A stretch of DNA of 64,000 nucleotides, taken from assembly GCA_001805965.1 (NCBI GenBank), contig MHHG01000005.1:5279-69278 (forward strand), given 5' to 3'. Below the pieces are notes generated by a model, which saw only the letters and a list, made by a program, of their open reading frames with translations, ran no database searches and had not been told where the DNA came from. This document shows positions 1 through 33,538 of the stretch, piece by piece (position 1 is the stretch's first letter; each line of letters begins with the position of its first letter). The position numbers were made by a program, and so were the translations under genes. This DNA comes from Omnitrophica WOR_2 bacterium RIFOXYA2_FULL_38_17. Its GTDB lineage: Bacteria; Omnitrophota; Gorgyraeia; Zapsychrales; Zapsychraceae.

Positions 1-1
1 T

Positions 2-919
2 GCTAAATGTAATTATTGTTATGCTACTTACTATGAACGTCCTGGTAATGATTTACCATTAATTGATATTAATAGGATAATAGACGATTTATCAGCAGCC
101 GGAACATTCAGGATCAATTTTGTTGGTGGAGAACCGTTAGTCAGAGATGATATCCACCAAATTATTTCTTATGCCAAAGATAAAAATATCAATTGTGCTC
201 TTACCACAAATGGACTATTAGTTAAACAAAATATCAAAACGCTTAAATTGCTTGACTCATTATGTTTCAGCATTGATGGCTGTGAAATAAATAATGACCT
301 TAACAGGGGGAAAGGTTCCTACAAAAAGGCTATCGAAGGATTGGAAATATGTAAAAATGAGAACATAAAAGTACAATTAAGCGCCGTACTAACAAAACAT
401 ACAGTAAATGATGTTGAACATATGGTAAACCTTGCTAGAAAGTATGATTGCAAAGTAGGATTTACAACATTAATTAGCCAGAATAGAGGACATAAAACTT
501 TTGATAATGATCTTCAGGCTGATATTGAACAGACAAAAAGTGCACTTAGACAGATAATTTTGCTGAAGGAAAATAATGCCCCGATATTGTTCTCTGTCGA
601 AACGTATAAAAACAGTTTATTATGGCCGGATTATAAGAAGGATATTTATTTCAAAGAAGAACCGGATTTTAAATATCCAAAATGTTATGCAGGAAAATAT
701 TTTTGTATTATTGATTACAACGGAGATATTTATCCTTGTCCTCAATTGATCGGAATATTTAAACCAAATAATATTCTAAAAAACGGATTTAAAGATGCTT
801 TTGATACTGCATCAAAGCATAGTTGTAATGCATGCTCAATGCCTTGTTCAAACGAATTTAGCATGTTTTTTGATCTTAACCCAAGAGTAATGTTCGACCT
901 ATTCATCAACAGGGAATGA
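2..919 (+). CDS. Radical SAM/SPASM-domain protein, 5' partial (start lies upstream of the window)
   Basis: The reading frame runs in from position 2 (AKCNYCYA..., the CxxC remainder of the CX3CX2C motif). It has the FVGGEPLV motif and a Cys-rich C-terminal SPASM-like segment (CYAGKYFC...YPCP...CNACSMPC). It is the same frame as track ORF 248..919 with no stop before it. Confidence 0.7.
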   Translation, partial: AKCNYCYATYYERPGNDLPLIDINRIIDDLSAAGTFRINFVGGEPLVRDDIHQIISYAKDKNINCALTTNGLLVKQNIKTLKLLDSLCFSIDGCEINNDLNRGKGSYKKAIEGLEICKNENIKVQLSAVLTKHTVNDVEHMVNLARKYDCKVGFTTLISQNRGHKTFDNDLQADIEQTKSALRQIILLKENNAPILFSVETYKNSLLWPDYKKDIYFKEEPDFKYPKCYAGKYFCIIDYNGDIYPCPQLIGIFKPNNILKNGFKDAFDTASKHSCNACSMPCSNEFSMFFDLNPRVMFDLFINRE

Positions 920-925
920 ATCAGT

Positions 926-1909
926 ATGTCTTTTTATAATAGAATAAAATCAGTTAATAGTTATATTAACGGTAAAACAACATCAGGCAATGTTTACCGC
1001 CTCGTAATAGAAATCAGCAATGCATGCAATCTGAAATGTTCAATGTGCCCAAGAAATAACATGGAACGTAAAGTTGAATTTATGACCAGCCAAGCATTTG
1101 AATCTATTATTAAAGACAATAAAGAAACTCTTGAATTTGTAAGCTTAAATGGTTACGGTGAACCTTTAATGCACCCGGAACTTTCAAGGTTCTTGAATAT
1201 TTGCAAGACATATAAGATTAAATCTGGCATTTCAACAAACTGCACCTTGCTTGATGAAAAAAGATCAAGAGAACTGCTAGAAAATCCCCCTGATTTAATT
1301 ATTCTTGCAATTGATGGAGCCACATCTGAAACTTATGAGGAGGTAAGGGTTGGTGCAAAATTTGACATTGTAATTAAAAATGTTAAACGTTTCCTGGGTA
1401 TGCGGAAAGGATACAACAAGAAACCTTTCGTAGTTCTCCAGTTTATTTATATGACAGAAACAAAATCACAAATTAACAAATTCAAAGGACTTTTTAACGG
1501 ATATGATTATGATTCGATTAGAATACGACAGTTAACACATTCCGGACGGAACAGGACAGATTCAAACTATAACAATTCTATGGGTTCTTGTTCATGGATA
1601 TGGAACGAACCAATGATATTGAGCGATGGAACTCTTGTCCCTTGTTGCCAAGATGTTAATGGCATTCTTAAATTAGGGAACATATTTAATGATCCCTTAA
1701 GTACGCTGTGGAATACTGGCTCTATTAATTCATTAAGGGAGAAGCATTCTTGTAATTTGCGCAAAACAATAAATTTATGCGAGCAATGTAATATGTATCA
1801 GCCCAGCTGGCCATTATTATTATGCAGCACCTTGTTTAACACAAAAGACCTAAATATGATCTTACCCTATGTTGAAACAATGCTTTCAATGCACAGATAT
1901 TGCAAATAA
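926..1909 (+). CDS. Radical SAM/SPASM-domain protein
   Basis: ISNACNLKCSMCPRN is a CX3CX2C motif. The GYGEPL motif is present. The C-terminal Cys cluster (LVPCCQDVNG, CNL...CEQCNMY) is SPASM/twitch-like. Confidence 0.7.
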   Translation: MSFYNRIKSVNSYINGKTTSGNVYRLVIEISNACNLKCSMCPRNNMERKVEFMTSQAFESIIKDNKETLEFVSLNGYGEPLMHPELSRFLNICKTYKIKSGISTNCTLLDEKRSRELLENPPDLIILAIDGATSETYEEVRVGAKFDIVIKNVKRFLGMRKGYNKKPFVVLQFIYMTETKSQINKFKGLFNGYDYDSIRIRQLTHSGRNRTDSNYNNSMGSCSWIWNEPMILSDGTLVPCCQDVNGILKLGNIFNDPLSTLWNTGSINSLREKHSCNLRKTINLCEQCNMYQPSWPLLLCSTLFNTKDLNMILPYVETMLSMHRYCK

Positions 1910-1918
1910 GGAACTTAA

Positions 1919-3283
1919 TTGAAACAAAAAGTCTTATTAGTTACTTCTCCGGCTATTCAAAAGAACAATTTTTGGACTTGTTCAATAACCAGCCCAATTG
2001 GCAGCATAATGCCTCCATGTGACTTGGCTTCAATAGCAGCTGTTTTACGTAAGAATAATATCGAGCCCAAAATACTCGAGATGCGTCATTTTAAAGACCC
2101 AATTCAAGCATTAAAGAATGAGGTCGCCGTTTTTCAACCTGATGCAATAGTCACTAATATTGGAACTGCCTCCGCAATTGAGGATTTTGAGATATTAGCA
2201 GCAGCTAAAGATACTGTTGAAAAACGTATTTGTTTCTGCTTTCATGCAATGGCGCTACCGGATGAACTGTTTGAAAAAGGGGCTACACATATTCTTGCCG
2301 GAGACCCTGAATATAGCATTGTAGCGGCAGTTCGTGGAGAGACCCTTGAAAAAGGCCTTTGGACAAAAGAAACAATCAAGAGAGAACCTGCCTGGATATC
2401 AGACCTTGATTCACTTCCTTTCCCGGCTTTAGACCTGATTGATATTGATGCATATCATGCACTTATCATGGGTAAAAATAGATTTGCGATATTGCTAAGC
2501 AATAGGGGGTGCCCTTATGAATGTCCGTATTGCGTTCTTCCGTTTCTATTTGGGCATAAGTTTAGAACAATGTCTGTTGATCGAGTAATTTCTGAGATCG
2601 AGCACAACATAAAGGAATTCGGCATCCGCTCATTTTTCTTTATTGATTCTGCCATCAATATAAATCCTCAATGGACCATGGAATTCTGTAAAGAAATACA
2701 AAGAAGAAACCTTAAGATACGCTGGTGCAGCAATATGAGAATTCCCCCTGTAACGAAAGAACTTTTGTATGAAATGAAAAAAGCAGGTTGTTTTCGTCTA
2801 TTCTATGGAGTAGAGGACCTTGACCTTTTAGAAAGATTGGACCGAAGAACAACAACAACTGCAACAAAAGAAGCTTTTGCATTAACTAGATCAGCAGGCA
2901 TAGAAACTGTTGCGTTTATAATTTTATTTCCAGATATTGATACAAATGAGAAAGTTATGGCGAAACGTATTATAAAAATGGTCTCAGACCTAAAAGCAGA
3001 TGCTATTCAGTGCAATATTGCAATTCCATATCCCGGCTCAAAAATGTATAATGAGTATATTGATAAATACAATATGTCAAAAAACTGGCAATTATATGAT
3101 CCTGCGGGAAATAAATACCCTTATAAAAGCAAACTGGATCTAGTAAAAACCAGACAATTGATATATTTGGGATTTTTCTTAAAAAATCCGATATATGTTT
3201 GGAATATAGTCAAGAACGCTAGCCTGCGCTCAATATTTACTTTTTTAAAAAATGCAACAATAGTGCTTTTCAATAGAAAATAA
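1919..3283 (+). CDS. Class B (B12-binding domain) radical SAM protein
   Basis: The N-terminal region looks like a B12-binding domain. The radical SAM motif is LSNRGCPYECPYC (CX3CX2C). A TTG start is supported by an AAGGA RBS 6 nt upstream. Confidence 0.65.
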   Translation: MKQKVLLVTSPAIQKNNFWTCSITSPIGSIMPPCDLASIAAVLRKNNIEPKILEMRHFKDPIQALKNEVAVFQPDAIVTNIGTASAIEDFEILAAAKDTVEKRICFCFHAMALPDELFEKGATHILAGDPEYSIVAAVRGETLEKGLWTKETIKREPAWISDLDSLPFPALDLIDIDAYHALIMGKNRFAILLSNRGCPYECPYCVLPFLFGHKFRTMSVDRVISEIEHNIKEFGIRSFFFIDSAININPQWTMEFCKEIQRRNLKIRWCSNMRIPPVTKELLYEMKKAGCFRLFYGVEDLDLLERLDRRTTTTATKEAFALTRSAGIETVAFIILFPDIDTNEKVMAKRIIKMVSDLKADAIQCNIAIPYPGSKMYNEYIDKYNMSKNWQLYDPAGNKYPYKSKLDLVKTRQLIYLGFFLKNPIYVWNIVKNASLRSIFTFLKNATIVLFNRK

Positions 3284-3287
3284 TATA

Positions 3288-4685
3288 ATGCGAATTATTC
3301 TACTATCACCACCATATTTACCGGAATACATGAGAAACGCCCGCTGTGATTTTGTTTCCATCTCTGCAACGCAATGGTACCCAATATTACTTGGTTATTG
3401 CGGAGCCTATCTGGAATACGAAGGACATACTGTAAAACTTATTGATGCCCCTGCCGCAGGATTAAACCATTCTCAAACAAAAATAATGATAGAAGAATGG
3501 TGCCCCAATCTTATCGTTCTTTATACCGGCAGAATGAGCGAAGACAATGACATCGCATTTGCTGAATCAATTATTGGATCAGTTAAATGTGACTGTGTTA
3601 TTGTGGGCCCTTATGCAAATATTGATCCTAAGGCTACTTTATCAAAATCAAAGATCATTAATAAGCTGGTAGCTGGAGAATTTGAACATCCTGTCGGGGA
3701 AATAGCTGGAGGCGTTGATCTTGGAAGCATTAAAAATCTGATATTCCGGAATGATGATACTATTCAAATAAACCCTACAAGAGAATATCTCACTACTGCA
3801 CAGCTTGATGAAATACCTTTCGTTTCAAGATTTTTTAGCAAGCAGCTCGATGAAAAATGGTACAAAACCCCATCTGAGTATTATCCTTATATTGACATTC
3901 TGACAGGAAGAGGCTGTAAATATGGACAATGCACTTACTGTTTGTGGGTTAATAGTTACGTTAAAGGCTCCACATATAACACAAGAAGCATAAACAATGT
4001 AATTGAAGAGTTTAAATATATTGAAAAAGAACTTCCTCATATCAGATCAGTTATGATACAAGATGATACTTTTACTGAAACAAGAGCAAGAGAGTTTAGC
4101 GATCAAATAATCAATTATGATATAAAGCTCCCATGGTCTTGTTATGCCCGAGCAAACATGAGCTACGGAACGATGCTCCTCATGAAAAAAGCTAATTGCA
4201 GGAATATCCACGTTGGTTATGAATCTGGCGACCCAAACATCCTGACCAGAATAAAAAAGGGGATTAGCATTGAAAGAATGATACGCTTTTCTCAAGATGC
4301 AAAAAAAGCCGGCTTACGAGTTCATGCTGATTTTGCGTTTGGATTTCCCGGAGAAACACCTGAAAACGCAAAAAAAACTGTTGAGTTAGCTTATAGAATG
4401 AACCCTCACACTTGCCAATTTCAAATAATGATACCCTTTCCAGGTACTCCATTTTATGACGAAATGAAGAAAAATGGATGGCTCAATAAGGATGGGCAAC
4501 CAGACATGCCGCAGTTCACAAATGACCAGATCAGAGAAGTTGCTAAATATGCATACAAAAGACTTTATATAAGTCCTAATTATTTGATCAAATGCATATG
4601 CCACCCATATGAGCACTTTTTTGCTAGAATAAAAGCCATTTCGCGAGCGATACCTGCATTATTCTGGAAAAAGTGGTCTTTATAA
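3288..4685 (+). CDS. Class B (B12-binding domain) radical SAM protein, variant CX4CX2C motif
   Basis: The motif ILTGRGCKYGQCTYC has C-x4-C-x2-C spacing. It is preceded by an N-terminal B12-binding-like domain. It is a paralog of 1919..3283 and of 43366..44805. Confidence 0.6.
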   Translation: MRIILLSPPYLPEYMRNARCDFVSISATQWYPILLGYCGAYLEYEGHTVKLIDAPAAGLNHSQTKIMIEEWCPNLIVLYTGRMSEDNDIAFAESIIGSVKCDCVIVGPYANIDPKATLSKSKIINKLVAGEFEHPVGEIAGGVDLGSIKNLIFRNDDTIQINPTREYLTTAQLDEIPFVSRFFSKQLDEKWYKTPSEYYPYIDILTGRGCKYGQCTYCLWVNSYVKGSTYNTRSINNVIEEFKYIEKELPHIRSVMIQDDTFTETRAREFSDQIINYDIKLPWSCYARANMSYGTMLLMKKANCRNIHVGYESGDPNILTRIKKGISIERMIRFSQDAKKAGLRVHADFAFGFPGETPENAKKTVELAYRMNPHTCQFQIMIPFPGTPFYDEMKKNGWLNKDGQPDMPQFTNDQIREVAKYAYKRLYISPNYLIKCICHPYEHFFARIKAISRAIPALFWKKWSL

Positions 4686-4775: not shown

Positions 4776-6449
4776 ATGTTAAGTAAACTCATCCAAAAAC
4801 ACAAATTGATCATTGTTACATTAGCTTTAGTTCTTTCAACAATATTGCTAAAAAGAATATCTTATAGCTTTATTTTTCCTATTTTGTTCTTTTTGGGAAT
4901 TTCAAACAAAAAAGATATCTCTTACAGAAGAGGGCTGATCTTGCTAGCTTTCACAATTGTAGCAATAGGAATGTTCTCTTATGTAATGAACAATTCATTA
5001 GGCCGAGATGAAAACATGTATCTAACTTCATCCAAACTAATGGCATCCCAATCTTTGTACACTGATTTCGCATATTTCCAAATGCCCTATTTCCCGATCA
5101 TCACAGGCAATCTTTTTAAATTATTTAAAATTACCCATTATTTACTATTTGGAAGAATAATTGCTTTTGCCGCCATATTTTCATCTTCAATATTTATTTA
5201 CCTGATCTCAATTAAGCTTACAGGAAGTAAGTTCATATCGCTTACAAGCATGCTGATATTTTCTTTGAATGAAACAATTGTTAGGGCCTGCGGCTATGCA
5301 TGGAATCATGTTATGCCGATTACTTTTCTTTTAATTGCTTTACATTTTTATTTGAACAGCTACGTTGAGAACTCAAGATACAGGAGATTGTTTTTTTGCG
5401 GATCCTTTGCTGCTCTAGCTTCTGGAACAAAACTTTTCTATATTTCAACAACAATACCACTATTAATTTTTACTATATTCTATCCAAAGAAAATATCATA
5501 TAAGAATTATCTTAGAACTGAACTAACATCATTTATTTCTGGATTATTTGTTGGGTCATTTCCTATTTTTTATTATCTGTTTCGTAACCCCGAGATATTT
5601 ATTTTTAATAATTTCAAATATCACGATCTAAATTCACTATGGTACAAAGAAATTGGAACTTTTTCGCCAATATCCTTAAAACAAAAATTATACGCCGCAA
5701 AAGTTCTTTTGTTAAACAACTCAAATTTTTTTCCAACAGCAATAACAATCTTTTTTATAATAACCCTCTTGGTTTCTTTGACAAAACGAGAGAAGCCTAA
5801 TCTAAATTTTAAAATTAATTATATTGGCCTTTCTGCTTCAATGCTTATATTTGCGATAATTGTCGTATTTTTGCCTTCACCAATCCAAGAACTGTACTTT
5901 ATATTGCCATTTACTTTAATGCTATTCTTAACATTATGCTTTTACAACTCAATACCAAACCACTGTAATATTTATTTCAGAAGCATTTTTCTAGCAACAT
6001 CAATTATAGTTATGTTTTCTGGTGGACCTAGGCTCTTTCGTTATGCAGATGGGAGAACTTTTAGAACAGAGGGTTGGCGGGGCATGATAGTGCACCAAAC
6101 AGCAAATGAGATCAAAAAGAACATTCCTAACATGAAATCAATTGACTGCATCGCAACATTATCGCCTTTATACGCAATAGAATCTCAAACAAATATATAT
6201 AATGAATTTTCAACTGGACCCTTTTTGTATCGTGTCGGCCATTTTATTGATAAAAAGCTATTAGCAAGATATAAAGGAACATCAAAGATCCATTTGAATA
6301 CTTTTTTAGATGCTCAAGAACCTAAAGCTATCCTCGTCGGACACGATAAGCTAGTTGAGCAGCCCTTTATCGATTATGCTAATTCAAGAGGATATTTAAA
6401 GGTCGACAAGGATTTTGATGGCTTAACTTTATACATTTTAAACAAATAA
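4776..6449 (+). CDS. Polytopic membrane protein, GT-C-fold glycosyltransferase-like (ArnT/PMT-like)
   Basis: It has at least 10 predicted TM helices and an early loop with GRDENMY (a DE-type motif). Its size and topology resemble GT39/GT83 enzymes. Confidence 0.45.
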   Translation: MLSKLIQKHKLIIVTLALVLSTILLKRISYSFIFPILFFLGISNKKDISYRRGLILLAFTIVAIGMFSYVMNNSLGRDENMYLTSSKLMASQSLYTDFAYFQMPYFPIITGNLFKLFKITHYLLFGRIIAFAAIFSSSIFIYLISIKLTGSKFISLTSMLIFSLNETIVRACGYAWNHVMPITFLLIALHFYLNSYVENSRYRRLFFCGSFAALASGTKLFYISTTIPLLIFTIFYPKKISYKNYLRTELTSFISGLFVGSFPIFYYLFRNPEIFIFNNFKYHDLNSLWYKEIGTFSPISLKQKLYAAKVLLLNNSNFFPTAITIFFIITLLVSLTKREKPNLNFKINYIGLSASMLIFAIIVVFLPSPIQELYFILPFTLMLFLTLCFYNSIPNHCNIYFRSIFLATSIIVMFSGGPRLFRYADGRTFRTEGWRGMIVHQTANEIKKNIPNMKSIDCIATLSPLYAIESQTNIYNEFSTGPFLYRVGHFIDKKLLARYKGTSKIHLNTFLDAQEPKAILVGHDKLVEQPFIDYANSRGYLKVDKDFDGLTLYILNK

Positions 6450-6468: not shown

Positions 6469-7335
6469 ATGAAACACTTGTTTATCGCATTACGGCCAAA
6501 GCACTGGATAAAAAATATGTTTATTTTTTTACCGCTTATATTTGGAAAAAAATTATTCATAAGCCCCTTGAACACTAATACTGTGCTGGCATTTTTCTTA
6601 TTTTCTATAGCAGCTAGTGCTGTATACCTGATGAATGACATAATTGACTGCGAAAAGGACAAAAAACATCCCGCAAAAAAAATGAGGCCCATTGCTGCAG
6701 GAAAGGTCAGCACTAATAAAGCAGTTATAACCTCAATTCTTCTGGGCTCAATAGCTATAGCAGGAGCATCTTTATTAAGCATTAAATTCTGTTCTATTAT
6801 CATGATCTATTTGATCGCAAATATAATATATTCAAAATTATTAAAAGAAGCTGTCATCATTGACGTATTTTGCATCGCTATATTCTTTTTTCTTCGTGTT
6901 TTAGCGGGAGGCATCATAGCAGAGACTGAAATATCTCATTGGCTTTTAATAATGACCACTTTAATAGCTTTGTTTTTAAGTTTGAACAAAAGAAGGCAGG
7001 AGCTGTTGATCACTGACCAAAATCTACAAGACAGAAGAGTCGTTCTTGATAAGTACAACACATATTTTATAGATCAAATGATCGCCGTTATTACTTCATC
7101 AGTTGTTATTTCATACATGCTTTACACTGTTGATGAAAGAACTGTAAGCGTATTTGGCACTAAAAATTTAATTTATTCTGTGCCGTTCGTATATTATGGC
7201 ATTTTTAGATATTTATATTTAATTCACAAAGCAAACGCTGATGGTGACCCTACAAAATTGTTTTTATCTGATTTTAAAATGCAGTTAAATGTTATATTGT
7301 GGCTTATCGTTTGCTCAGTTGTGATATATTTTTAA
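6469..7335 (+). CDS. UbiA-family prenyltransferase, decaprenyl-phosphate phosphoribosyltransferase-like
   Basis: The N-terminus LRPKHWIKNMFIFLPLIFG and the NDIIDCEKD (NDxxDxxxD) motif are typical of the Rv3806c/DPPR synthase subfamily. An AGGAG RBS sits upstream. Confidence 0.6.
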   Translation: MKHLFIALRPKHWIKNMFIFLPLIFGKKLFISPLNTNTVLAFFLFSIAASAVYLMNDIIDCEKDKKHPAKKMRPIAAGKVSTNKAVITSILLGSIAIAGASLLSIKFCSIIMIYLIANIIYSKLLKEAVIIDVFCIAIFFFLRVLAGGIIAETEISHWLLIMTTLIALFLSLNKRRQELLITDQNLQDRRVVLDKYNTYFIDQMIAVITSSVVISYMLYTVDERTVSVFGTKNLIYSVPFVYYGIFRYLYLIHKANADGDPTKLFLSDFKMQLNVILWLIVCSVVIYF

Positions 7336-7369
7336 AATGGTCTTAAAACTAACTTTGTAAGGAGAAAAT

Positions 7370-8407
7370 ATGAAGGTGCTTGTAACAGGTGGTTCAGGAT
7401 TTTTAGGCATAAACATGATAAGAAAACTTCTAGAGAAGGGCATAGAAGATATAGTATCTTTAGATCTGATCAAATTTGACTATCCGGAAATAGATAAGAT
7501 CAAAACCATAGTTGGAGATATCCGGAACATTGTTGATGTAGAAAAAGCTATGTCTGATATTGATATAGTAATTCACACTGCTGCCGCATTACCTTTATAC
7601 ACAAAAGAGGAGATTTACACAATTGATGTCGAGGGCACTCGAACACTCCTAAAAACTGCTCATAAGTTCAATGTCGATAGATTCATCATGATATCTTCAA
7701 CAGCAGTTTATGGAATACCAGACCATCATCCTTTGTATGAAGACGATAAACTTATTGGAGTTGGCCCATATGGTGAAGCTAAAATTAAAGCAGAAGAAGT
7801 CTGTTTTGAATTTAAGAAAAAAGGCATGTGTATCCCTATTCTTAGGCCAAAGTCCTTTATTGGCCCTGAAAGGCTTGGAGTTTTTGCACTCTTCTATGAT
7901 TGGGCCAAAGATGGCAAAGGTTTCCCCATGATCGGAAGCGGAAATAACAGATACCAACTCTTTGATGTAGAGGATCTTTGTGATTCAATTTATCTTTGCA
8001 TGACCAAAGAAAAATCTATAGTTAACGACATCTACAATGTTGGCGCTAAGGAATTCACTACAATGAAAGAAGATTACCAGGCAGTATTGGATAAAGCAGG
8101 CTTTGGCAAGAAGATCATAGGTTTTCCTGCCTGGCCAATGATAACCATATTAAGAATACTTGAATTCTTCAAATTGTCCCCATTGTATAAATGGGTGTAC
8201 GAAACTGCTTGTGAAGATTCATTTGTTTCAATAGAAAAAGCCGAACAAAAGCTCGGGTTCAAACCAAAGTATTCCAACAAAGATGCATTATTGAGAAATT
8301 ACAAATGGTACCTTGATAACTTTAAGAATTTTGAAGGTGCTTCGGGTATCTCCCATAGGGTTCCTTGGAAACAGGGGATATTGAGATTTTTTAAAATCTT
8401 TTTTTAA
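7370..8407 (+). CDS. NAD-dependent epimerase/dehydratase (extended SDR)
   Basis: The Rossmann motif VLVTGGSGFLG is present, with a YxxxK region and a strong AAGGAG RBS. Confidence 0.7.
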   Translation: MKVLVTGGSGFLGINMIRKLLEKGIEDIVSLDLIKFDYPEIDKIKTIVGDIRNIVDVEKAMSDIDIVIHTAAALPLYTKEEIYTIDVEGTRTLLKTAHKFNVDRFIMISSTAVYGIPDHHPLYEDDKLIGVGPYGEAKIKAEEVCFEFKKKGMCIPILRPKSFIGPERLGVFALFYDWAKDGKGFPMIGSGNNRYQLFDVEDLCDSIYLCMTKEKSIVNDIYNVGAKEFTTMKEDYQAVLDKAGFGKKIIGFPAWPMITILRILEFFKLSPLYKWVYETACEDSFVSIEKAEQKLGFKPKYSNKDALLRNYKWYLDNFKNFEGASGISHRVPWKQGILRFFKIFF

Positions 8408-8417
8408 AATATTATTT

Positions 8418-9968
8418 ATGCAAAAAAACATTCTTTATAAAATTGATAAAAACAGTTATTCAATATTAAATTTGTTTTTATTGTCAATTTGCGGAATACT
8501 TCTTGTTTTATTCTTAACACCATCTGGCCTGTATCTTTCCAACGATTCTGTTTCCTATATATGCACCTCAAGGAATATTCTAGCTGGCAAAGGAATAATG
8601 ATCGCTAATAAATCAAATATATTAGTACCCTTACCGTATTTTCCTCCGCTTGTTCCAATGACATTCTCTTTGTTCGGATCGTTAAACAATGATCTGCTGT
8701 ATGTTGCCAGAATATTAAATGCCTTTTGTTTTGGATCAACTATCTTTTTAGTAGGTTTTATTGTTAATAAATTCTCAAATTCGAGAATATTATATCTACC
8801 GGCCTCACTGTTTATCTTGCTCTCTTTGCACCTTGTAAGAATCCACACTTGGCTTTGGAGTGAACCACTTTTCTATATATTCATGACATCAAGCTTTCTG
8901 TCCCTAGCAATTTATTATGATGAAAAATCATTAAAGGCATTTTATATATCAGCAATTTGTGCATCTCTGGCATTCTCAATACGTTATGCAGGTGTCATGG
9001 TAGTCATATCTAATTGTTTAGCTATTATGCTTATAACAACTAAAAAACCTTCTAAAAGATTTAAACAATCCTTCCTTTACGGATTGATTGGCGTTTCCTT
9101 TACATTCACATGGGTTATTTTTAGTAAATATTTTCAAACCATGCACTCAGGCAAAAAATTGATAGTTGATTCATCGTACTTGTTTAATTTCGAAAGCGGA
9201 TTATCTGTTATAAGCGAATGGTTCTTGCCTGGCAGAATTTCATTTCCAATATTTGGAGCTATTTTATTCTTATTATTCCTTATCATATTTTTTAAACAAC
9301 TATACCTTAACTTTAAATCACCGAACAAAACAAATTTCATTACAATAATTTCTGGCTTATATATAATTTCTTATATTTCTTTTCTTTTGATAATTAACCT
9401 TTATACTTTAATACTTTTTGACCCTAGAATCGTATCTTCATTGTTTATAGCTTCAATAATATTCATTTTCACAATTAAATCTAACAATTCACAACCTTTA
9501 TTCAATGCTAGTTCAATTTTGATTTATATTATGCTGTCTATATTAATTTCTTATCCAATACGTATATTAAGGCATGTGAAATATGCACAAAATAAAAACA
9601 TGTCTGTTTTAAACAAGTACAAGAACAATCATAAAGTTCTTGAAGAACTTGACTCATTGCCAAACAATTCTTTGATCTACACGAATATCCCAGGATTGTT
9701 TAAGCTATTCACTTCAAAAGCAGTAAGACAAATACCAAATAAATCGATGACGATTTATGCTGCAGACAATAAGAGGATCCTTGGTGAAACAGATGAATTC
9801 TTGAGCTCTATAAGAAGCAAAAACGTTTTTATTGTATATTTTGAAGATATTGAGTTTAAGGAAACAATGTATTCAGAAGAATACCTAAGAAAACATTTAA
9901 ACATTGATTTTATTAAATCTTTTGATGGTGTTTCAATTTACAAATCAAGAACAAATCTACCGTTATGA
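8418..9968 (+). CDS. Polytopic membrane protein, possible GT-C glycosyltransferase
   Basis: It has many TM helices over a 516-aa length and sits in the glycan island. Its stop overlaps the next start in an ATGA arrangement. Confidence 0.35.
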   Translation: MQKNILYKIDKNSYSILNLFLLSICGILLVLFLTPSGLYLSNDSVSYICTSRNILAGKGIMIANKSNILVPLPYFPPLVPMTFSLFGSLNNDLLYVARILNAFCFGSTIFLVGFIVNKFSNSRILYLPASLFILLSLHLVRIHTWLWSEPLFYIFMTSSFLSLAIYYDEKSLKAFYISAICASLAFSIRYAGVMVVISNCLAIMLITTKKPSKRFKQSFLYGLIGVSFTFTWVIFSKYFQTMHSGKKLIVDSSYLFNFESGLSVISEWFLPGRISFPIFGAILFLLFLIIFFKQLYLNFKSPNKTNFITIISGLYIISYISFLLIINLYTLILFDPRIVSSLFIASIIFIFTIKSNNSQPLFNASSILIYIMLSILISYPIRILRHVKYAQNKNMSVLNKYKNNHKVLEELDSLPNNSLIYTNIPGLFKLFTSKAVRQIPNKSMTIYAADNKRILGETDEFLSSIRSKNVFIVYFEDIEFKETMYSEEYLRKHLNIDFIKSFDGVSIYKSRTNLPL

Positions 9969-10923: not shown

Positions 10924-11940
10924 ATGAAAATATTATATATTTCTAATCATAACCCCCATTTTGATAATACTAATGTTTTCAGAGAAGACGCTATAAAGCA
11001 ACTCGGGCATGAATTGATATTTTTTGAAGATAGAAGCTTTTTGTTCCCTGGTAGGCTCAGGGACTCATGTGAATTTATAAGGAATATTGACTTAAATTTT
11101 ATCGGAAATAAACTTATCAAGACAATTAAAGAAAACTCACCTGATGTTTGTCTATTTGTGGGAGGGGGGGCTTTTAAAACCCAGGTCTTTAAAGATATTC
11201 AGGATTTAAATGTTAAGTCTATTTTATTGACAACTGATCCTTTAAATAGCTTGTATACTGAGCATATTAGCAAGAATGCATTTTATTTTGACCATATATT
11301 TTACTCTGGCACAGAAGCCAAAACCCTTCTTGATAAATTAGGATATTATAATTCTTCATGGCTGCCCTTTGCCTGTAGTCCAAACTTTCACAAACCAGTA
11401 CTTTTAAATGATGAAGAAAATAAAATATACAAGAAAGACATTGCTTTCGTAGGTTCATACTACAAAAACAGAGAACAAGTATTTGAATCAATAGCTGATC
11501 TTAATTTAGGTATTTGGGGCCCATCTTGGTCAAAAGTAAATAAAAGTTCAAAATTGGCCGTTAAGGCAATTGATACCCGGTTAAATTATACTGAGTGGAT
11601 AAAAATTTACAGCGCTGCCAAAATAGTTGTTGTTTCTCATTATAATGATGGCAAAACACCTTGCTTTCAAGCTAGCCCTAAAATCTTTGAAGCTTTAGCT
11701 TGTAAAAGCTTTCTCTTAGTTGATAAACAAAAGGACGTTTTAGATATTTTTAAAGACAGAAAACATTTAGTGTTCTTCGAGGATCCAAATGATCTAAGAC
11801 AAAAGATCCTCTATTACTTAGACAGCGATAAAGAAAGAAGTTTTATTGCTGAAAACGGCTATAAAGAAGTTTTAATGTCACACACGTATAAAAGAAGAAT
11901 TGAAGATCTATTAAAGATCATCGATACAGATCAATTATGA
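10924..11940 (+). CDS. CgeB-family / DUF3880-like glycosyltransferase-related protein
   Basis: A C-terminal region with FEALACKSFLL resembles the CgeB family. It sits between GT2 and GT4 genes. Confidence 0.45.
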   Translation: MKILYISNHNPHFDNTNVFREDAIKQLGHELIFFEDRSFLFPGRLRDSCEFIRNIDLNFIGNKLIKTIKENSPDVCLFVGGGAFKTQVFKDIQDLNVKSILLTTDPLNSLYTEHISKNAFYFDHIFYSGTEAKTLLDKLGYYNSSWLPFACSPNFHKPVLLNDEENKIYKKDIAFVGSYYKNREQVFESIADLNLGIWGPSWSKVNKSSKLAVKAIDTRLNYTEWIKIYSAAKIVVVSHYNDGKTPCFQASPKIFEALACKSFLLVDKQKDVLDIFKDRKHLVFFEDPNDLRQKILYYLDSDKERSFIAENGYKEVLMSHTYKRRIEDLLKIIDTDQL

Positions 11941-13052
11941 TCACAAAGAAAAACATAATACATTTAATCCCAACATTAGGTGTTGGCGGTGCCGAAAAGG
12001 TCATACTACACATATGCAAGAATTACGACAAAGAAAAATACAAAATAACTGTTATTTACTGGTTAGATTCTGAAGAATTACTGGACCAAATCAAAGAAAC
12101 AGGGGTTGAAGTAATAAAATTAACCATGAAAAAGACCATTTCATTTGAAATGGTCTTTAAATTAAGCAAAATTCTTAAAAACATATCCGCAGACTTACTT
12201 CATACTCATTTTTTTGATAGCGATCTAATTGGTTTTTTTTCATCATTATTATGTAATGTGCCACAAGTAATCCATATTCATTCGTATCCTTATCCAATAG
12301 AAACTAAACATTGTATTAGGTATAAAATCATATCTTTGTTTTGCAAGAAAATATTGTGTGTTTCTGAAATTGTTAAAGATCATGTAATTAAAAAAACCCG
12401 TATTAATCCTTCAAATGTTATGGTTATTCATAATGGCATTGAAATTGACGATATTTATGACAGTCTTAGCAATCAAAATATCTTAAAAACAAGGACCTCC
12501 TTTGGCATTGCAAAAGACGCAATCATCCTTGGAAACGTTGGCCGTTTGATTGCAAAAAAAGGACAAAAATATTTGATTCAAGCAATGCCACTTGTCTTAA
12601 AAAAATATCCTAATATTAAATTAATAATTGTTGGAGATGGCCCGTTAAAATCCGACTTAACACAATTAGTTAATTCGTTATCACTGGAAAATGTTGTGAT
12701 TCTGGCAGGAGAACTGAAGAACATACCCGTTCTTTTAAATGTCTTTGATTTCTTCATATTCCCATCTATCAATGAATCCCTTGGGATAGCAGTTATCGAA
12801 GCTATGGCAGCTGGTAAACCTATCATAGCAATTAAGGATACCGGCGTATCCGAATTAATCGCTAACAACGAAGAAGGCTTATTAATTAATCCAGAGAATG
12901 AAAATGAAATTGCAGATGCAATAATTTATATGATCGAGAATCCTGTAAAAACAAAAGAATTCGGGTTAAAAGCGAAAGAAAAAGCAAAAATGTTCAGTGC
13001 TGCTATAATGGTATCTAAAATACAAAATGTTTATGATGAAATTTTATCTTGA
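11937..13052 (+). CDS. GT4 family glycosyltransferase
   Basis: TLGVGGAEKV is at the N-terminus. The C-terminal motif ESLGIAVIEAMAAGKPIIA is the GT4 EX7E motif. Its start overlaps the previous stop (ATGA). Confidence 0.8.
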   Translation: MITKKNIIHLIPTLGVGGAEKVILHICKNYDKEKYKITVIYWLDSEELLDQIKETGVEVIKLTMKKTISFEMVFKLSKILKNISADLLHTHFFDSDLIGFFSSLLCNVPQVIHIHSYPYPIETKHCIRYKIISLFCKKILCVSEIVKDHVIKKTRINPSNVMVIHNGIEIDDIYDSLSNQNILKTRTSFGIAKDAIILGNVGRLIAKKGQKYLIQAMPLVLKKYPNIKLIIVGDGPLKSDLTQLVNSLSLENVVILAGELKNIPVLLNVFDFFIFPSINESLGIAVIEAMAAGKPIIAIKDTGVSELIANNEEGLLINPENENEIADAIIYMIENPVKTKEFGLKAKEKAKMFSAAIMVSKIQNVYDEILS

Positions 13053-13061
13053 ACCTGAAAT

Positions 13062-14183
13062 ATGAACATATTATACATTCATAACAAAGCACAAATCAGT
13101 GGAGGGGAAAAGAGCCTTATTAATCTTTGGGAAAATATGGATAGGGAAACCTTTAATCTATTCTTAGCTATACCAGAAGAAGGCAAGTTATCTGAATACG
13201 CAAGATCTTTAAATATAAAGGTCTTTCTATTAAAAATACCTCAACTAAACCTATTGCATTGCTTCTCAATTTTTCGTGCACATAATAGCTTGATTTCATT
13301 AATAAAAAAAAACAAAATCGACTTAATACATTCCTATTCACCGAGAAACAATATTTTGGGCGCAATAGCTGCAAAGCTGCTTAGAAAACCAATAATCTGG
13401 CATGAAAGAAATCTACCCTTTGATAATGAAAAAGACATATCAAGACAATTACTGTTCTTACCTGATATAATAATCTGTAATTCCGGAGCGGTTGCTAAAC
13501 GTTTTGAAATAAAAGACAAGGTCCCGGACAAAGTAAAAACAATATTGAATGGCGTCAATGTAAAAAGATTTTCAGCAAACAGCGATACTATGACATTTCG
13601 CCACAAATTTAATCTTGATAAAAGAAAAGTTGTTGGCATTATTTCAAATCTTAATAAAAGAAAGAATGTCGAATATTTTATTGATATCGCAGCAAAGCTT
13701 GCTCAAAAAAGGAAGGATGTTCAATTTGTTATTGTCGGAGACACTTTTGAGGAGCAAAATAACAGATTTGAAGAGCTTAATAAACTAATATCAAATTTTG
13801 GGCTGGAAGATCAATTTACTTTAACAAAGTTTGTTGATAACACTTATGAAATATTGTCTTGCTTCAATATTGCAGCACATGTTACCGAAAGAGAAGCATG
13901 CTCAAGAGCTATTCTGGAATCCATGGCCTGCGGAAAGGCAGTAGTTGCACTGAATGAAGGCGGCAACCCTGAACTTATTGAAAATAATATATCAGGGATC
14001 TTAGTTGAACCAAGGAATTTAGATAAATTTACTGATACACTTAACAAGCTTTTAGATAATGATGTTTTATGCTCACAATTAGGAGAAATGGCCAGAAAAA
14101 GGATCACTGAGTTGTTCGATATAAATATAAACACTAAACTAACTGAAGATCTATATAAACAGCTTTATAAGGACAATGAATGA
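13062..14183 (+). CDS. GT4 family glycosyltransferase
   Basis: GGEKS is at the N-terminus. The C-terminal motif is REACSRAILESMACGKAVVA. Confidence 0.75.
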   Translation: MNILYIHNKAQISGGEKSLINLWENMDRETFNLFLAIPEEGKLSEYARSLNIKVFLLKIPQLNLLHCFSIFRAHNSLISLIKKNKIDLIHSYSPRNNILGAIAAKLLRKPIIWHERNLPFDNEKDISRQLLFLPDIIICNSGAVAKRFEIKDKVPDKVKTILNGVNVKRFSANSDTMTFRHKFNLDKRKVVGIISNLNKRKNVEYFIDIAAKLAQKRKDVQFVIVGDTFEEQNNRFEELNKLISNFGLEDQFTLTKFVDNTYEILSCFNIAAHVTEREACSRAILESMACGKAVVALNEGGNPELIENNISGILVEPRNLDKFTDTLNKLLDNDVLCSQLGEMARKRITELFDININTKLTEDLYKQLYKDNE

Positions 14184-15307
14184 AATTAGGAATCGACGCA
14201 AGAGAAATACAGGATGGGGTTTATACAGGTATTGGCCGTTCTCTCTACAACTTCATAAAATACTTTTTATCGCAGAATAATGATGACCAACTAGTTTTAT
14301 TCTCTAGTAAGAAGTTAAGGCTAGGGCCCAATAAGAGGTTCAAAAATATTGTAATACCTGGGAACATTATTATTTTATGGGATCAAGTTGCCCTGCCAAT
14401 GGCAATTAATCAAGAACAAATAGATATTTTCTATTCGCCTTATTACAAAGTGCCTCTTAATGCAAAATGTATCGTTGTAAGCGCCATACTTGACCTTATG
14501 TATATCATTTATGAAAAATATAAAAACAATTTGAATTTCTTTTCGGAATCTTATTATAAGCATTTTGGAAAGCTTTATGCAGACAGGTCAGATATTATAT
14601 TAACTTGCTCTGAGTATTCAAAGAAGGACATTATAAATATTTTTTCTGTTGATCCTGAAAAGATAAAGGTAATACCTTTGAGCGTTAGTGATATTTATAA
14701 AACAGAAAATGAGTCCGGGAAGATCTCAGCAGCTAAAGCAAAGTACGGAATAGAAGGCAGATATATCTATTATATAGGCAACTTCAAGCATCATAAGAAT
14801 GTTGAAAACCTCATAATTGCCTTTAGAAAGATTTTACCTAAATTTAAGGACCTGAAACTTGTTTTAGCTGGTCCAAAAACCCATCTATATCAACAATACT
14901 TGTCATTAATACATGTGCTTTCGATTCAGGATAGCGTAATATTTACTGGAAAGATACTCCCGGAAGATGAGCCGCACCTTCTTTACAATGGTGCTGAAGT
15001 ATTTGTATTTCCTTCGCTTTATGAGGGATTTGGGATACCCCCAATTGAAGCAATGGCATGCGGAACACCTGTTATTTCCTCAAATTTAACTTCACTGCCG
15101 GAAGTTATCAGTAGCGCCGGCATTCTGGTTGATCCTTTCAACACTGATGATCTTGCAGCAGCAATTTCTAGCATATTAAGCAACAATAGCCTTAAAGATG
15201 TTTTAATTGAAAAGGGGTTCAAACTTGCTGAGAAATTCTCTCAGGAAAATGTTTCAAAACAATATTATGAGTTCTTTAAAAAACTGTTAAGGAATAAGGA
15301 TAATTAA
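14180..15307 (+). CDS. GT4 family glycosyltransferase
   Basis: The motif EGFGIPPIEAMACGTPVISS is present. Its start overlaps the previous stop (ATGA). Confidence 0.8.
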   Translation: MKLGIDAREIQDGVYTGIGRSLYNFIKYFLSQNNDDQLVLFSSKKLRLGPNKRFKNIVIPGNIIILWDQVALPMAINQEQIDIFYSPYYKVPLNAKCIVVSAILDLMYIIYEKYKNNLNFFSESYYKHFGKLYADRSDIILTCSEYSKKDIINIFSVDPEKIKVIPLSVSDIYKTENESGKISAAKAKYGIEGRYIYYIGNFKHHKNVENLIIAFRKILPKFKDLKLVLAGPKTHLYQQYLSLIHVLSIQDSVIFTGKILPEDEPHLLYNGAEVFVFPSLYEGFGIPPIEAMACGTPVISSNLTSLPEVISSAGILVDPFNTDDLAAAISSILSNNSLKDVLIEKGFKLAEKFSQENVSKQYYEFFKKLLRNKDN

Positions 15308-15320
15308 CCACATATAAACC

Positions 15321-16457
15321 ATGAAATCACTGTTTATTGTCAATGATTTTCCGCCGATATTGGGTGGCCAATCAACATATTACTACAACTTGTGCAGAGC
15401 CTTACCAAAGGATTCCTTTATCGTTCTTGCTCCTAAATGGGGCAAATACAAAGAATTTGATTCTAATCAAGATTTTACAATTATTAGAAAATCTTATTTA
15501 ACAAAGATACCTTTTTTAGAAAAAGCTTTTAAGATCATCCTTCCATTTTTTTATGCATTACCAATAATTTCCAAAAAAGATATAAAACGGATCCATTGTG
15601 CCCATGTCTTATCTACAGGGGTAGTAGGCTTATTGTTAAAAATACTCTTTAAAAAAGAATATTTTCTGTATACTCATTCTGCGGATATCATGTCTTATCA
15701 ACACATTCCACTAATTAAAAAGCTGCTTGTTACTATCTTGAAGAATGCATCTAAAATAATGGCCAATAGCAATTTTACACATGACAAACTGATTGAACTT
15801 GGCGTAGAAAAGGAAAAAATAATCATTTCTCATCCGTTAATAGACTTCAATGACTACACTAAAGAGACTAATTTAAGCAATATCGTGCAGAAATATGACC
15901 TGAAAGGGAAAAAAGTTATTCTTAGCGTAAACCGCCTTATTGAAAGAAAAGGCAATGATATGGTAATCAGGGCTATTCCTATCATTAAAAGGGAAATAGC
16001 AAATGTAGTTTACCTTATTGTTGGATCAGGACATTATTTATCGACCTTGAAGTCCTTGGTTAAAACATATAATTTAGTTTGTACTGTTATTTTTCTTGAA
16101 TCAATTACCAACTTGGAAATAATAGATCTCTATAAGGCATGTAACGTCTTTGTTATGCCTAGCAGGATTAGCGAAAAAAAGGGCGACGCAGAAGGTTTTG
16201 GTATCGTATTTTTAGAAGCAAATGCCTGCGGGATCCCGGTTATAGGGGGGAGATCAGGAGGGATTCCCGATGCTGTTATTGATAATAAAACCGGAATACT
16301 TGTAGATCCTCTAAGTGTTGATGAAATTGCTAAGGCAATAATTCAACTGCTAAAAGACGAGCATTTAGCAAAACAACTTGGCGAATTCGGGAAGAACAGG
16401 GTTAAAGAAGAATTCGATTGGAGAAACGGGGCAAAAGAAGTATCAAATCTTTTCTAA
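15321..16457 (+). CDS. GT4 family glycosyltransferase
   Basis: The motif EGFGIVFLEANACGIPVIGG is present. Confidence 0.75.
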   Translation: MKSLFIVNDFPPILGGQSTYYYNLCRALPKDSFIVLAPKWGKYKEFDSNQDFTIIRKSYLTKIPFLEKAFKIILPFFYALPIISKKDIKRIHCAHVLSTGVVGLLLKILFKKEYFLYTHSADIMSYQHIPLIKKLLVTILKNASKIMANSNFTHDKLIELGVEKEKIIISHPLIDFNDYTKETNLSNIVQKYDLKGKKVILSVNRLIERKGNDMVIRAIPIIKREIANVVYLIVGSGHYLSTLKSLVKTYNLVCTVIFLESITNLEIIDLYKACNVFVMPSRISEKKGDAEGFGIVFLEANACGIPVIGGRSGGIPDAVIDNKTGILVDPLSVDEIAKAIIQLLKDEHLAKQLGEFGKNRVKEEFDWRNGAKEVSNLF

Positions 16458-16467
16458 TTAATATTTT

Positions 16468-32960: not shown

Positions 32961-33538
32961 TGGCTAATAAAGAATCAACATTTATAAATATGGTAGCTAC
33001 ACTGTTCATCGTGACATTCATTTCATCAGCGGCTGTAGGCTATGTATATGAAGCTACCAAAGAGCCTATTGCGCAAGCAAGGCTTGAGAAAAAAACTATT
33101 GCTATACGGGCAGTCGTGCCTGATTTTGACAATAAACCCATTGATGAAACATATACTATAAATTCCAATGTCGGGCCATTATCCTGTTACCCTGCAAAAC
33201 AGGGAGGTCAATTAGTCGGAACTGCTATTGAAGCAATTACGAATAAAGGCTTTGGGGGAACAGTGAAATTAATGGTAGGTCTTCTTCCAAACGGCGTAAT
33301 TAAAGATATTGCTGTTCTTGAGCACAAAGAGACTCCGGGCCTTGGGGATAAAATGGATAAAAGCAAATCTGATTTTAGTATTCAATTTAACGGCAAAGAT
33401 CCCTCTAAAATGAAATTAACCGTATCAAAAGATGGTGGTGATATAAACGCAATAACTGCCGCTACGATCAGCTCTAGGGCCTTTTGTGATGCTGTTCAAA
33501 CAGCATACACTTCATATATGAAAGAAGGAAAACAATGA
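32960..33538 (+). CDS. rnfG: Rnf complex subunit G (FMN-binding)
   Basis: An FMN-binding domain is present with the …ITAATISSRA motif. The in-frame ATG at 32960 overlaps the rnfD stop (the track ORF begins at 32924). Confidence 0.75.
   Translation: MANKESTFINMVATLFIVTFISSAAVGYVYEATKEPIAQARLEKKTIAIRAVVPDFDNKPIDETYTINSNVGPLSCYPAKQGGQLVGTAIEAITNKGFGGTVKLMVGLLPNGVIKDIAVLEHKETPGLGDKMDKSKSDFSIQFNGKDPSKMKLTVSKDGGDINAITAATISSRAFCDAVQTAYTSYMKEGKQ

Follow-up and report, generated by a model that had tools for sequence, protein, structure and literature searches.

A radical SAM-rich gene block that probably tailors a membrane-anchored sugar at an Omnitrophota cell-envelope glycan locus

The subject of this study is a run of genes for radical S-adenosylmethionine (rSAM) enzymes at the start of a 64,000-nucleotide (nt) stretch of DNA from Omnitrophica WOR_2 bacterium RIFOXYA2_FULL_38_17 (assembly GCA_001805965.1, contig MHHG01000005.1, forward strand, positions 5,279 to 69,278), which we call the window. 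A first-pass annotation had placed four tandem rSAM genes within positions 1 to 4685, and both the open reading frame (ORF) calls and matches to the Pfam model PF04055 (Radical_SAM) bore this out. E values against this model were 4.9e-19, 1.5e-14, 6.5e-16, and 9e-16 for genes 1 to 4, and each protein combined a score of 55 to 70 bits (gathering cut-off, 29.5 bits) with a three-cysteine motif, placing all four in the radical SAM superfamily. The genes follow one another at intervals of 6, 9, and 4 nt (genes 1/2, 2/3, and 3/4, respectively), and they close a longer block of genes, part of which recurs in other genomes as a cassette with core and accessory members. Within the window, the genes and the motif of gene 4 are as follows:

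2..919, + strand: gene 1, truncated at its 5' end in the window (full length, 340 amino acids [aa]); rSAM enzyme with a twitch/SPASM-like C-terminal Fe-S domain; putative accessory member
926..1909, + strand: gene 2, 327 aa; rSAM enzyme with a twitch/SPASM-type auxiliary-cluster domain; putative accessory member
1919..3283, + strand: gene 3, 454 aa; AprD4-like rSAM enzyme with an N-terminal Rossmann/B12-binding-like domain and a CX3CX2C motif; putative accessory member
3288..4685, + strand: gene 4, 465 aa; HpnJ-like rSAM enzyme with an N-terminal B12-binding-like domain and a CX4CX2C motif; putative core member
3915..3941, + strand: codons of the gene 4 CX4CX2C motif (C210-K-Y-G-Q-C215-T-Y-C218), read from the DNA

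The cluster-binding motif occupies residues 34 to 41 in genes 1 and 2, 198 to 205 in gene 3, and 210 to 218 in gene 4. Genes 2 (CNLKCSMC) and 3 (CPYECPYC) both read CX3CX2C, and gene 4 reads GRGCKYGQCTYC, that is, CX4CX2C. A CX3CX2C motif had also been assigned to gene 1. This holds for the full-length protein, which reads CNAKCNYC and was recovered (340 aa; L001:8972-9994) from contigs encoding an identical gene 2 protein, but the window itself contains only ..AKCNYC, the CX2C part, with the first cysteine encoded upstream. The "GEPL" strings reported for genes 1 and 2 are present and, judged by where they lie, resemble the glycine-rich SAM-binding ("GGE") motif. Pairwise identity among the rSAM genes of the locus is 25 to 30%, mostly over the core domain, so they represent distinct families; recent tandem duplication was ruled out.

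An exact lookup of the gene 2 protein led to contigs carrying an identical protein, from which we recovered and read 10 kb of sequence 5' of the window. In this region, a gene for a family 4 glycosyltransferase (GT4) is followed, in order, by genes for the following proteins:

Family 2 glycosyltransferase (GT2), 393 aa: membrane-embedded; weak matches to ArnC
rSAM357, 357 aa: rSAM enzyme; best NCBIfam match, AhbD; BlsE-like PDB match
GDSL-like protein, L001:2702-3820, 372 aa: sub-threshold Pfam match; between rSAM357 and the next gene
Short-chain dehydrogenase/reductase (SDR), 325 aa: best NCBIfam match, HpnA, at 186 bits
Class I SAM methyltransferase, 250 aa
Polytopic membrane protein, L001:5557-7467, 636 aa: no family match
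B12-binding rSAM enzyme, 501 aa: matches PF02310 and PF04055; directly 5' of gene 1

From the GT2 gene onward this order continues through genes 1 to 4, after which come GT-C-like proteins. The earlier description of the rSAM genes as a quartet did not survive the extension: the run comprises five contiguous rSAM genes, and a sixth, rSAM357, lies five genes further upstream of the 501-aa enzyme. Junctions between the upstream genes are overlaps or gaps of 4 to 11 nt, except for one gap of 60 nt. It had been suggested that these enzymes mature a peptide, in the manner of HxsBC or PqqE, and that a precursor gene was hidden beyond the 5' edge. Junctions as dense as these leave no room for a precursor peptide gene; none fits in the junctions from 10 kb upstream through the rSAM run, and the recovered 5' sequence rules out such a gene upstream. 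Two further observations concern individual upstream genes. Apart from this locus, the GDSL-like gene turned up in a single close Omnitrophota relative (L079), and it is missing or fragmented in the gene calls of two assemblies of the same locus (L002 and L003). As a candidate HpnH, rSAM357 was rejected (75 bits against a cut-off of 225); models for AhbD, NirJ, and MoaA score higher.

Conservation of the block was assessed in one genome per species, which yielded 80 loci with relatives of gene 4. ORFs at each locus were assigned by their best match among the proteins of the Omnitrophota locus described here, and partner frequencies refer to the 58 loci with at least 8 kb of flanking sequence. 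All 80 loci are from metagenome-assembled genomes (MAGs) or single-amplified genomes. Their hosts belong to Planctomycetota (many of them Phycisphaerae), Omnitrophota, Chloroflexi, Desulfobacterota, Nitrospirae/Nitrospinota, Elusimicrobia, Lentisphaerae, Acidobacteriota, and Myxococcota, and further to Firestonebacteria, Saccharibacteria, and DPANN archaea, including Woesearchaeota, Altiarchaeota, and Aenigmatarchaeota. MAGs of Planctomycetota, Chloroflexi, Lentisphaerae, Aminicenantes, and others share the order GT2, rSAM357, SDR, methyltransferase, gene 4, and one Planctomycetota locus holds the full set in a slightly altered order. GT2 is the most frequent partner (67% of loci), followed by the methyltransferase (55%), the SDR (47%), and rSAM357 (34%); all four occur together at 18 of the 58 loci, and at least one is present at 47. 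Relatives of the 501-aa enzyme are found at a subset of loci. From these comparisons, the predicted core of the cassette is GT2, rSAM357, SDR, methyltransferase, and gene 4, with the 501-aa B12-type enzyme and genes 1 to 3 as a putative accessory tailoring set. The GT2 proteins form a small family (269 matches, 46 to 62% identical, on contigs with gene 4 homologues) whose members often match PF13506 (Glyco_transf_21), a model that covers HpnI and ceramide glucosyltransferase. We found no published description of this cassette in the literature searched, which did not cover all journals, and none of its members falls under a curated NCBIfam model.

The large membrane protein of the block behaves differently from these partners. 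A membrane-protein family of ~650 aa adjoins gene 4 at 14 loci, and a large polytopic membrane protein of 636 to 668 aa occupies the same slot, from the methyltransferase to the later rSAM genes, in several phyla (L001:5557-7467; L012:7968-9974; L008:2978-4933). Comparison of the 636-aa protein with the ~650-aa family and with PMT_2/GT-C proteins by BLASTP, a family hidden Markov model (HMM), and hhalign gave nothing significant. This dissimilarity could reflect extreme divergence or non-orthologous replacement.

The CX4CX2C spacing of gene 4, which the first-pass annotation had flagged as an anomaly and possible artefact, proved to be genuine and conserved. All 120 of the best gene 4 homologues share it, at 55 to 69% identity and from many phyla (for those with a named source, Chloroflexota, Tectomicrobia, Abyssobacteria, Elusimicrobia, Planctomycetota, Lentisphaerae, Proteobacteria, and others). 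An identical gene 4 protein is recorded from eight contigs or independent assemblies in four source collections (NCBI, JGI, ENA, and Logan), one record being a Candidatus Omnitrophica MAG, and the motif codons (tgt aaa tat gga caa tgc act tac tgt) are without a homopolymer run. Together, the homologues, the assemblies, and the clean codons rule out a sequencing error as the origin of the spacing. We also searched 1.8 billion cluster representatives exhaustively and examined the best 150. The signature RGC-x-[WY]-G-x-C-x-[FY]-C was present in 19 of these, including most of the closest full-length ones, and nearly all of the remainder read CX3CX2C. A full-length alignment (E = 6e-79) of gene 4 with an annotated HpnJ from Paraburkholderia graminis, whose gene adjoins hpnI, gave 34% identity. 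The HpnJ reads GRGCR-SKCTFC in this alignment, so gene 4 carries a one-residue insertion relative to it. Judged from these alignments, CX4CX2C is a conserved and probably diagnostic marker of the gene 4 subfamily.

The spacing is nonetheless a known variant and not new to rSAM enzymology. It has been described in the B12-type rSAM enzymes OxsB, for which a crystal structure is available, GenK, and GenD1 (PMC9204698, PMC4340712), and RadicalSAM.org lists a CX4CX2C megacluster (PMC9477430). The OxsB structure shows that a motif with this spacing still binds the SAM-cleaving [4Fe-4S] cluster (PMC9204698, PMC4340712), and the gene 4 motif would be expected to do the same. In all three enzymes the motif sits in a class-B-type scaffold, as in gene 4, and OxsB is among the structural matches of gene 4. 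OxsB is only 13 to 14% identical to gene 4 in the structural alignment, the gene 4 insertion has its own signature (C-x-[WY]-G-x-C), and the pathways are unrelated.

Two further relatives of gene 4 came to light. The window holds a second HpnJ-like B12-type rSAM gene (43366-44805, - strand, 479 aa), which shares 30% identity with gene 4 along its full length, and the comparison with a paralogue that had been proposed as a check on gene 4 could thus be made: this gene has the canonical CX3CX2C (CNNGCTFC), whereas gene 4 keeps CX4CX2C. The paralogue scores 338 bits against the HpnJ HMM (cut-off, 578) and is solitary, lying between an extracytoplasmic function (ECF) sigma/anti-sigma pair and an unannotated ORF. 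The other relative, P0241, is a cluster representative without a locus. It is 482 aa long and 59% identical to gene 4, all three cluster cysteines are gone (SRGSKYDQGTYY), and its first ~29 residues resemble the N terminus of gene 1. It appears to be a cassette remnant, from a related organism, that has decayed and undergone fusion.

The N-terminal B12-binding-like domains that had been read in genes 3 and 4 are supported by both structure prediction and family matches. The window copies of the two genes gave no match to the B12-binding model PF02310 at E <= 0.01; among aligned family members, however, 29 of 30 gene 4 relatives and 36 of 40 gene 3 relatives match it, in keeping with the N-terminal B12-binding Rossmann-like domain of class B rSAM enzymes. 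AlphaFold2 models built on the family alignments (pLDDT confidence of 91.8 for gene 3 and 89.0 for gene 4) align along their entire length with two-domain rSAM structures of the class B type. For gene 3, the top Foldseek match is AprD4 (E = 3e-28, TM score of 0.77), followed by TsrM, MgmA, and OxsB; for gene 4, full-length matches are to MgmA, AprD4, TsrM, OxsB, CysS, and TokK. The family matches and the full-length model matches together argue that the domain is real.

What these domains imply for chemistry is a separate matter. It had been argued that class B architecture points to C-methylation. The class-B-type fold stands, but the closest characterised relatives of the two genes, AprD4 for gene 3 and HpnJ for gene 4, are not methylases, and from these relationships C-methylation does not appear to be the best guess for either. 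AprD4 is a 1,2-diol dehydratase that has a B12-binding-like fold and binds no cobalamin (PMC12931638), so the fold of genes 3 and 4 does not decide whether they use cobalamin. AprD4 (of the apramycin pathway; PDB 6fd2) is the best match of gene 3 in both sequence (1.4e-27, residues 30 to 383) and structure, has the same two-domain architecture, acts on a sugar, and is among the top two structure matches of gene 4 as well. It differs in being only 21% identical to gene 3, in that no aminoglycoside cluster is found here, and in lacking cobalamin, whereas the B12-binding model of Pfam is still matched by most relatives of gene 3. Family assignments are equally distant. Gene 3 matches the NCBIfam AprD4 model (NF033070) at 2e-32, with 112.7 bits against a cut-off of 500, and gene 4 matches TIGR03471 (HpnJ) at 1e-93, with 314.8 bits against an equivalog cut-off of 577.6. 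On its scores, gene 4 is best described as a putative HpnJ-like paralogue below the family cut-off.

Genes 1 and 2 had been called a SPASM pair. The C-terminal cysteine clusters, Fe-S extensions of the SPASM/twitch type, are indeed there, but neither gene has a full SPASM domain, with five conserved cysteines in place of seven. We took a SPASM domain (PF13186/TIGR04085 type, with two auxiliary clusters) to require a Pfam score above 21.5 bits and seven conserved C-terminal cysteines (CX9-15GX4C ... CX2CX5CX3C ... C). Against PF13186, gene 2 passes (39.4 bits) and gene 1 fails (17.0 bits), and the CX2CX5CX3C block is not present in the family alignment of either. In alignments of orthologues from related loci, gene 1 keeps cysteines 263, 281, 310, 313, and 317 in 10 to 11 of 11 sequences, laid out as C263...G276-x4-C281, then C310-x2-C313, plus C317. 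Gene 2 keeps cysteines 222, 240, 241, 285, and 288 in all nine, laid out as C222...G235-x4-C240(C241), then C285-x2-C288. Both thus show the C...GX4C hairpin and subsequent CX2C pair that characterise a twitch domain, conserved across orthologues. A twitch-like, single-auxiliary-cluster domain fits these alignments better than SPASM, and each protein would hold one auxiliary cluster. BtrN, the twitch-domain dehydrogenase of butirosin biosynthesis (PDB 4m7t), has the layout kept by gene 2 orthologues and is the best PDB sequence match of gene 2 (9e-12), although the match spans ~95 core residues and gene 2 is longer, with a fifth conserved cysteine. The best NCBIfam match of gene 2 is a tungsten-cofactor oxidoreductase maturase model (116 bits against a cut-off of 380). 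For gene 1, the best PDB sequence matches are an uncharacterised rSAM core-domain protein (9dfu), viperin-type enzymes, GDGT-MAS, and BlsE, all over the core domain only.

HMM classification against radical SAM subfamilies, which had been proposed as a check, spoke against the peptide reading. The two genes have sub-threshold matches to models for MftC, WgkB, PqqE, and sactipeptide and ranthipeptide maturases, but these scores fall two- to sixfold below the cut-offs, and no rSAM/SPASM family for ribosomally synthesized and post-translationally modified peptides (RiPPs) reaches its own. For full-length gene 1, MftC (TIGR03962), its best NCBIfam match, scores 119 bits against 265, PqqE (TIGR02109) 66 against 381, and HxsB (TIGR03978) 54 against 370.

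As far as sequence matches identify them, the nearest characterised relatives of most of the cassette's rSAM enzymes have carbohydrates or cyclitols as substrates:

Gene 4: HpnJ; contraction of the ring of a lipid-bound glucosamine (proposed)
Gene 3: AprD4; dehydration of a sugar 1,2-diol
Gene 2: BtrN; oxidation of an aminocyclitol
rSAM357: BlsE; decarboxylation of a glucuronide

For gene 1 they are viperin and BlsE. These relatives, together with a pairing of GT2 and an HpnJ-like enzyme that mirrors hpnI-hpnJ, make rSAM tailoring of a membrane-anchored sugar the best-supported reading. We propose, with a probability of roughly 0.6, that the window genes are the 3' end of an operon-like block of ~12 genes that remodels a membrane-anchored sugar within a cell-envelope glycan locus. 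The broader claim that the block tailors a glycan or glycolipid and not a peptide is, if anything, slightly safer, whereas a specifically lipid-linked, HpnJ-type mechanism is a tentative suggestion that we hold with less confidence than its opposite.

Under this proposal, the membrane-embedded GT2 would transfer a hexose or hexosamine to a lipid or polyprenyl phosphate anchored in the membrane, and the sugar would then be remodelled by radical chemistry on the cytoplasmic face. Gene 4 may carry out an HpnJ-type hydrogen abstraction followed by rearrangement of the carbon skeleton, for example, ring contraction to a cyclitol; sugar ring contraction is the chemistry proposed for HpnJ itself (PMC9204698). 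Gene 3 would contribute an AprD4-type 1,2-diol dehydration (a deoxygenation) finished by an SDR, gene 2 a BtrN-type C-H oxidation, and gene 1 and rSAM357 a dehydration or decarboxylation of the viperin or BlsE type. Methyl groups could come from the 501-aa enzyme and the SAM methyltransferase. The predicted product is a heavily modified sugar head group displayed on the envelope.

Two known systems frame this proposal. HpnI and HpnJ, which act in the synthesis of the bacteriohopanepolyol side chain in Burkholderia and Paraburkholderia, share with the cassette the combination of B12-binding-like N terminus and rSAM core, the pairing of that enzyme with a membrane GT2, an HpnA-like SDR (present in the cassette block), and proposed chemistry on a lipid-bound sugar. 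The cassette differs in the inserted glycine of gene 4 and its score of about 315 bits against 578, in having no hopanoid genes nearby, in adding rSAM357, a methyltransferase, and up to four more rSAM enzymes, and in occurring only in uncultured lineages, including the candidate phyla radiation (CPR) and DPANN. Arn-type tailoring (ArnC as GT2, undecaprenyl phosphate as carrier, ArnT as GT-C) offers a parallel in the order of events, from GT2 through carrier-bound tailoring to a large polytopic transferase in the membrane. In two other phyla, the cassette has a PMT_2-type GT-C protein at its side: one of 715 aa (26.7 bits, passing the cut-off) lies 3' of the gene 4 orthologue at a Planctomycetota locus, and one of 634 aa (29.7 bits) lies 5' of GT2 at a Deltaproteobacteria locus. 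Unlike that system, the present locus has no Arn enzymes, its tailoring would be radical-based, and the GT-C link is weak, with no conservation of sequence.

Several findings weigh against this proposal. All NCBIfam family assignments of cassette members fall below the curated cut-offs. The likeness of genes 1 and 2 and rSAM357 to sugar enzymes is largely that of a shared rSAM core (E = 1e-9 to 1e-14), and non-sugar models score similarly, namely, MftC for gene 1, the tungsten-cofactor oxidoreductase maturase for gene 2, and AhbD for rSAM357; PDB matches of these enzymes also include SkfB, MoaA, and GDGT-MAS. Direct similarity of the GT2 to HpnI is marginal (E = 3e-4 over 107 residues), so the link between them rests on the family-level PF13506 matches. 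Genes 1, 2, and 3 occur together at 4 of the 58 loci and any one of them at 21, and the large membrane protein of the cassette is kept in position but not detectably in sequence. No orthologues of the downstream proteins UbiA288, GTC557, and GTC516 lie beside gene 4 at the 80 other loci. Finally, the acceptor could be a lipid, a polyprenyl phosphate, or a soluble nucleotide sugar, which are indistinguishable here.

The last of these choices is the basis of the leading alternative, which we consider unlikely though clearly ahead of the others. The rSAM enzymes, SDR, and methyltransferase might act on a soluble nucleoside diphosphate sugar, producing a deoxy, branched, or methylated monosaccharide that the island's glycosyltransferases, of which the GT2 would be just one, place in an O-antigen- or capsule-like polymer. 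AprD4, BtrN, and BlsE act on soluble glycoside or nucleoside substrates, and the block sits inside a glycan island with a 4,6-dehydratase, a DegT aminotransferase, WbqC, and five GT4 genes. However, gene 4 is most often accompanied by a membrane GT2 that belongs to a small, dedicated family, the closest characterised relative of gene 4, HpnJ, acts on a lipid-linked sugar beside its own GT2, the conserved core has no nucleotidyltransferase gene, and in most other genomes the core cassette lies outside large GT4-rich islands.

A role in modifying lipid chains is less probable again. The B12-type and SPASM-type rSAM enzymes would here methylate, cyclise, or cross-link the hydrocarbon chains of membrane lipids, with the GT2 only adding a head group, after the models of HpnP/HpnR, GrsA/B, Tes/GDGT-MAS, and the proposed ladderane enzymes (lipid rSAM enzymes are reviewed in PMC13459092). 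Weak matches to TIGR04072 ("lipid biosynthesis B12-binding/radical SAM protein"), HpnR, and GDGT-MAS, along with a UbiA prenyl-type transferase nearby, are consistent with such a role. Yet these scores lie below those of the sugar-enzyme matches and far under their own cut-offs, and UbiA is not conserved with the cassette; it exceeds the cut-off of the model for decaprenyl-phosphate phosphoribosyltransferase (286 bits against 234), an enzyme of a glycan-donor pathway. MAGs of DPANN archaea and Saccharibacteria, groups that generally have little lipid biosynthesis, also carry the cassette.

We regard it as very improbable that gene 4 is a divergent true HpnJ in a cassette making a hopanoid side chain of the cyclitol-ether type, even with HpnJ as its top family at 1e-93, HpnA as the top match of the upstream SDR, an HpnI-type Pfam model matched by the GT2 family, and hopanoid producers among some of the host phyla (Planctomycetota, Acidobacteriota, and Desulfobacterota; PMC12324291). 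The gene 4 score is about half of the equivalog cut-off, gene 4 is only 34% identical to the annotated HpnJ and has one additional residue in its cluster loop, DPANN and CPR MAGs carry members of the family, and the window holds a second HpnJ-like gene with canonical CX3CX2C. Genes for HpnH, HpnG, HpnK, and squalene-hopene cyclase were not seen in the window, in the 10 kb 5' of it, or around three homologues with annotated neighbourhoods; an association with hopanoid genes (shc, hpnH, hpnI, and hpnK) was therefore absent in those regions, which showed only a generic GT2 and an HpnA-like SDR.

The least probable reading is RiPP maturation, in which the SPASM enzymes would cross-link a precursor peptide encoded nearby and the B12 enzymes C-methylate it; B12-dependent rSAM C-methylases are common in RiPP clusters, but with no space for a precursor, sub-cut-off HMM scores, no RiPP recognition element, protease, or peptide exporter found in the block, conserved partners across phyla that are GT2, SDR, and methyltransferase and not peptides, and glycosyltransferases and sugar enzymes as neighbours, in a reading that covered 10 kb upstream and 60 kb downstream, it is largely refuted. 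By its gene content, the locus is a predicted cell-envelope glycan island and not a RiPP locus.

At present, the finding is a sound correction of annotation (a glycan and not a peptide context, a known motif variant, and a larger cassette), with no new system demonstrated. New here is a module of the HpnIJ type that has additional radical enzymes and no hopanoid context; the superfamilies and the motif variant were already known. It is conceivable, though we would sooner bet against it, that the cassette makes a previously unseen class of envelope glycoconjugate in which a lipid- or carrier-bound sugar is rearranged (for example, to a carbocyclic cyclitol like those of hopanoid cyclitol ethers or of archaeal calditol), deoxygenated, and methylated. 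The makers would be uncultured anaerobes without hopanoids, from Omnitrophota, Planctomycetota, Chloroflexota, Elusimicrobiota, CPR bacteria, and DPANN archaea. Should the cassette act as its relatives lead one to expect, radical sugar remodelling of the HpnJ or calditol type would not be confined to hopanoid producers and Sulfolobales, and uncultured anaerobes, episymbiotic CPR and DPANN lineages among them, would have a widespread route to surface head groups that resist acid and hydrolases. It would also provide a genetic handle for work on lipid and glycan biomarkers and, in compact form, six distinct rSAM enzymes that work on a single scaffold. A CX4CX2C subfamily beside a CX3CX2C paralogue in one genome is convenient for enzymology.

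Downstream of gene 4, a 90-nt AT-rich spacer separates it from the next gene:

4776..6449, + strand: polytopic membrane protein directly 3' of gene 4, 557 aa; PMT_2 (PF13231) at 17.4 bits, below the cut-off of 26.1

This protein is weakly GT-C/PMT_2-like and a possible transferase for the product, and its membership in the cassette is uncertain. Comparison by hhalign with the 715-aa Planctomycetota and 634-aa Deltaproteobacteria PMT_2 proteins detected no homology. The genes after gene 4 encode two GT-C/PMT_2-like membrane proteins, UbiA, an SDR, a GT2, and a GT1-like protein, and then come five GT4 genes and sugar genes. UbiA, the GT-C proteins, and SDR345 were considered as parts of the conserved system and ruled out, there being no UbiA or GT-C orthologues in the 80 loci and SDR345-like proteins in few. 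In the region 6469-9968, UbiA is flanked by two GT-C/PMT_2-like polytopic proteins and the SDR, an arrangement that resembles a donor pathway for polyprenyl-phospho-pentose (arabinan type), to judge from the gene content. Positions 11937-17619 hold five consecutive GT4 genes (371 to 383 aa) followed by WbqC, a 4,6-dehydratase, a PIG-L deacetylase, and a DegT aminotransferase. Together they resemble an amino-sugar module of the O-antigen or capsule type. The downstream island also holds a gene for a tetratricopeptide repeat (TPR) protein.

From ~23.8 kb onward, the window contains housekeeping genes (tricarboxylic acid cycle enzymes, the Rnf complex, and others). A complete Rnf-type operon (an RnfB-like ferredoxin, then C, D, G, E, and A) occupies 29745-37087 together with a following NfnAB/sulfide-dehydrogenase-like pair. 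The operon would fit a strict anaerobe with low-potential ferredoxin to reduce rSAM clusters. Directly beyond it, at 37135-38163, lies an rSAM enzyme of the AmmeMemoRadiSam system (TIGR04337, 563 bits against a cut-off of 220). Including this enzyme, the window holds six rSAM genes, and the two just upstream bring the total at the locus to eight.

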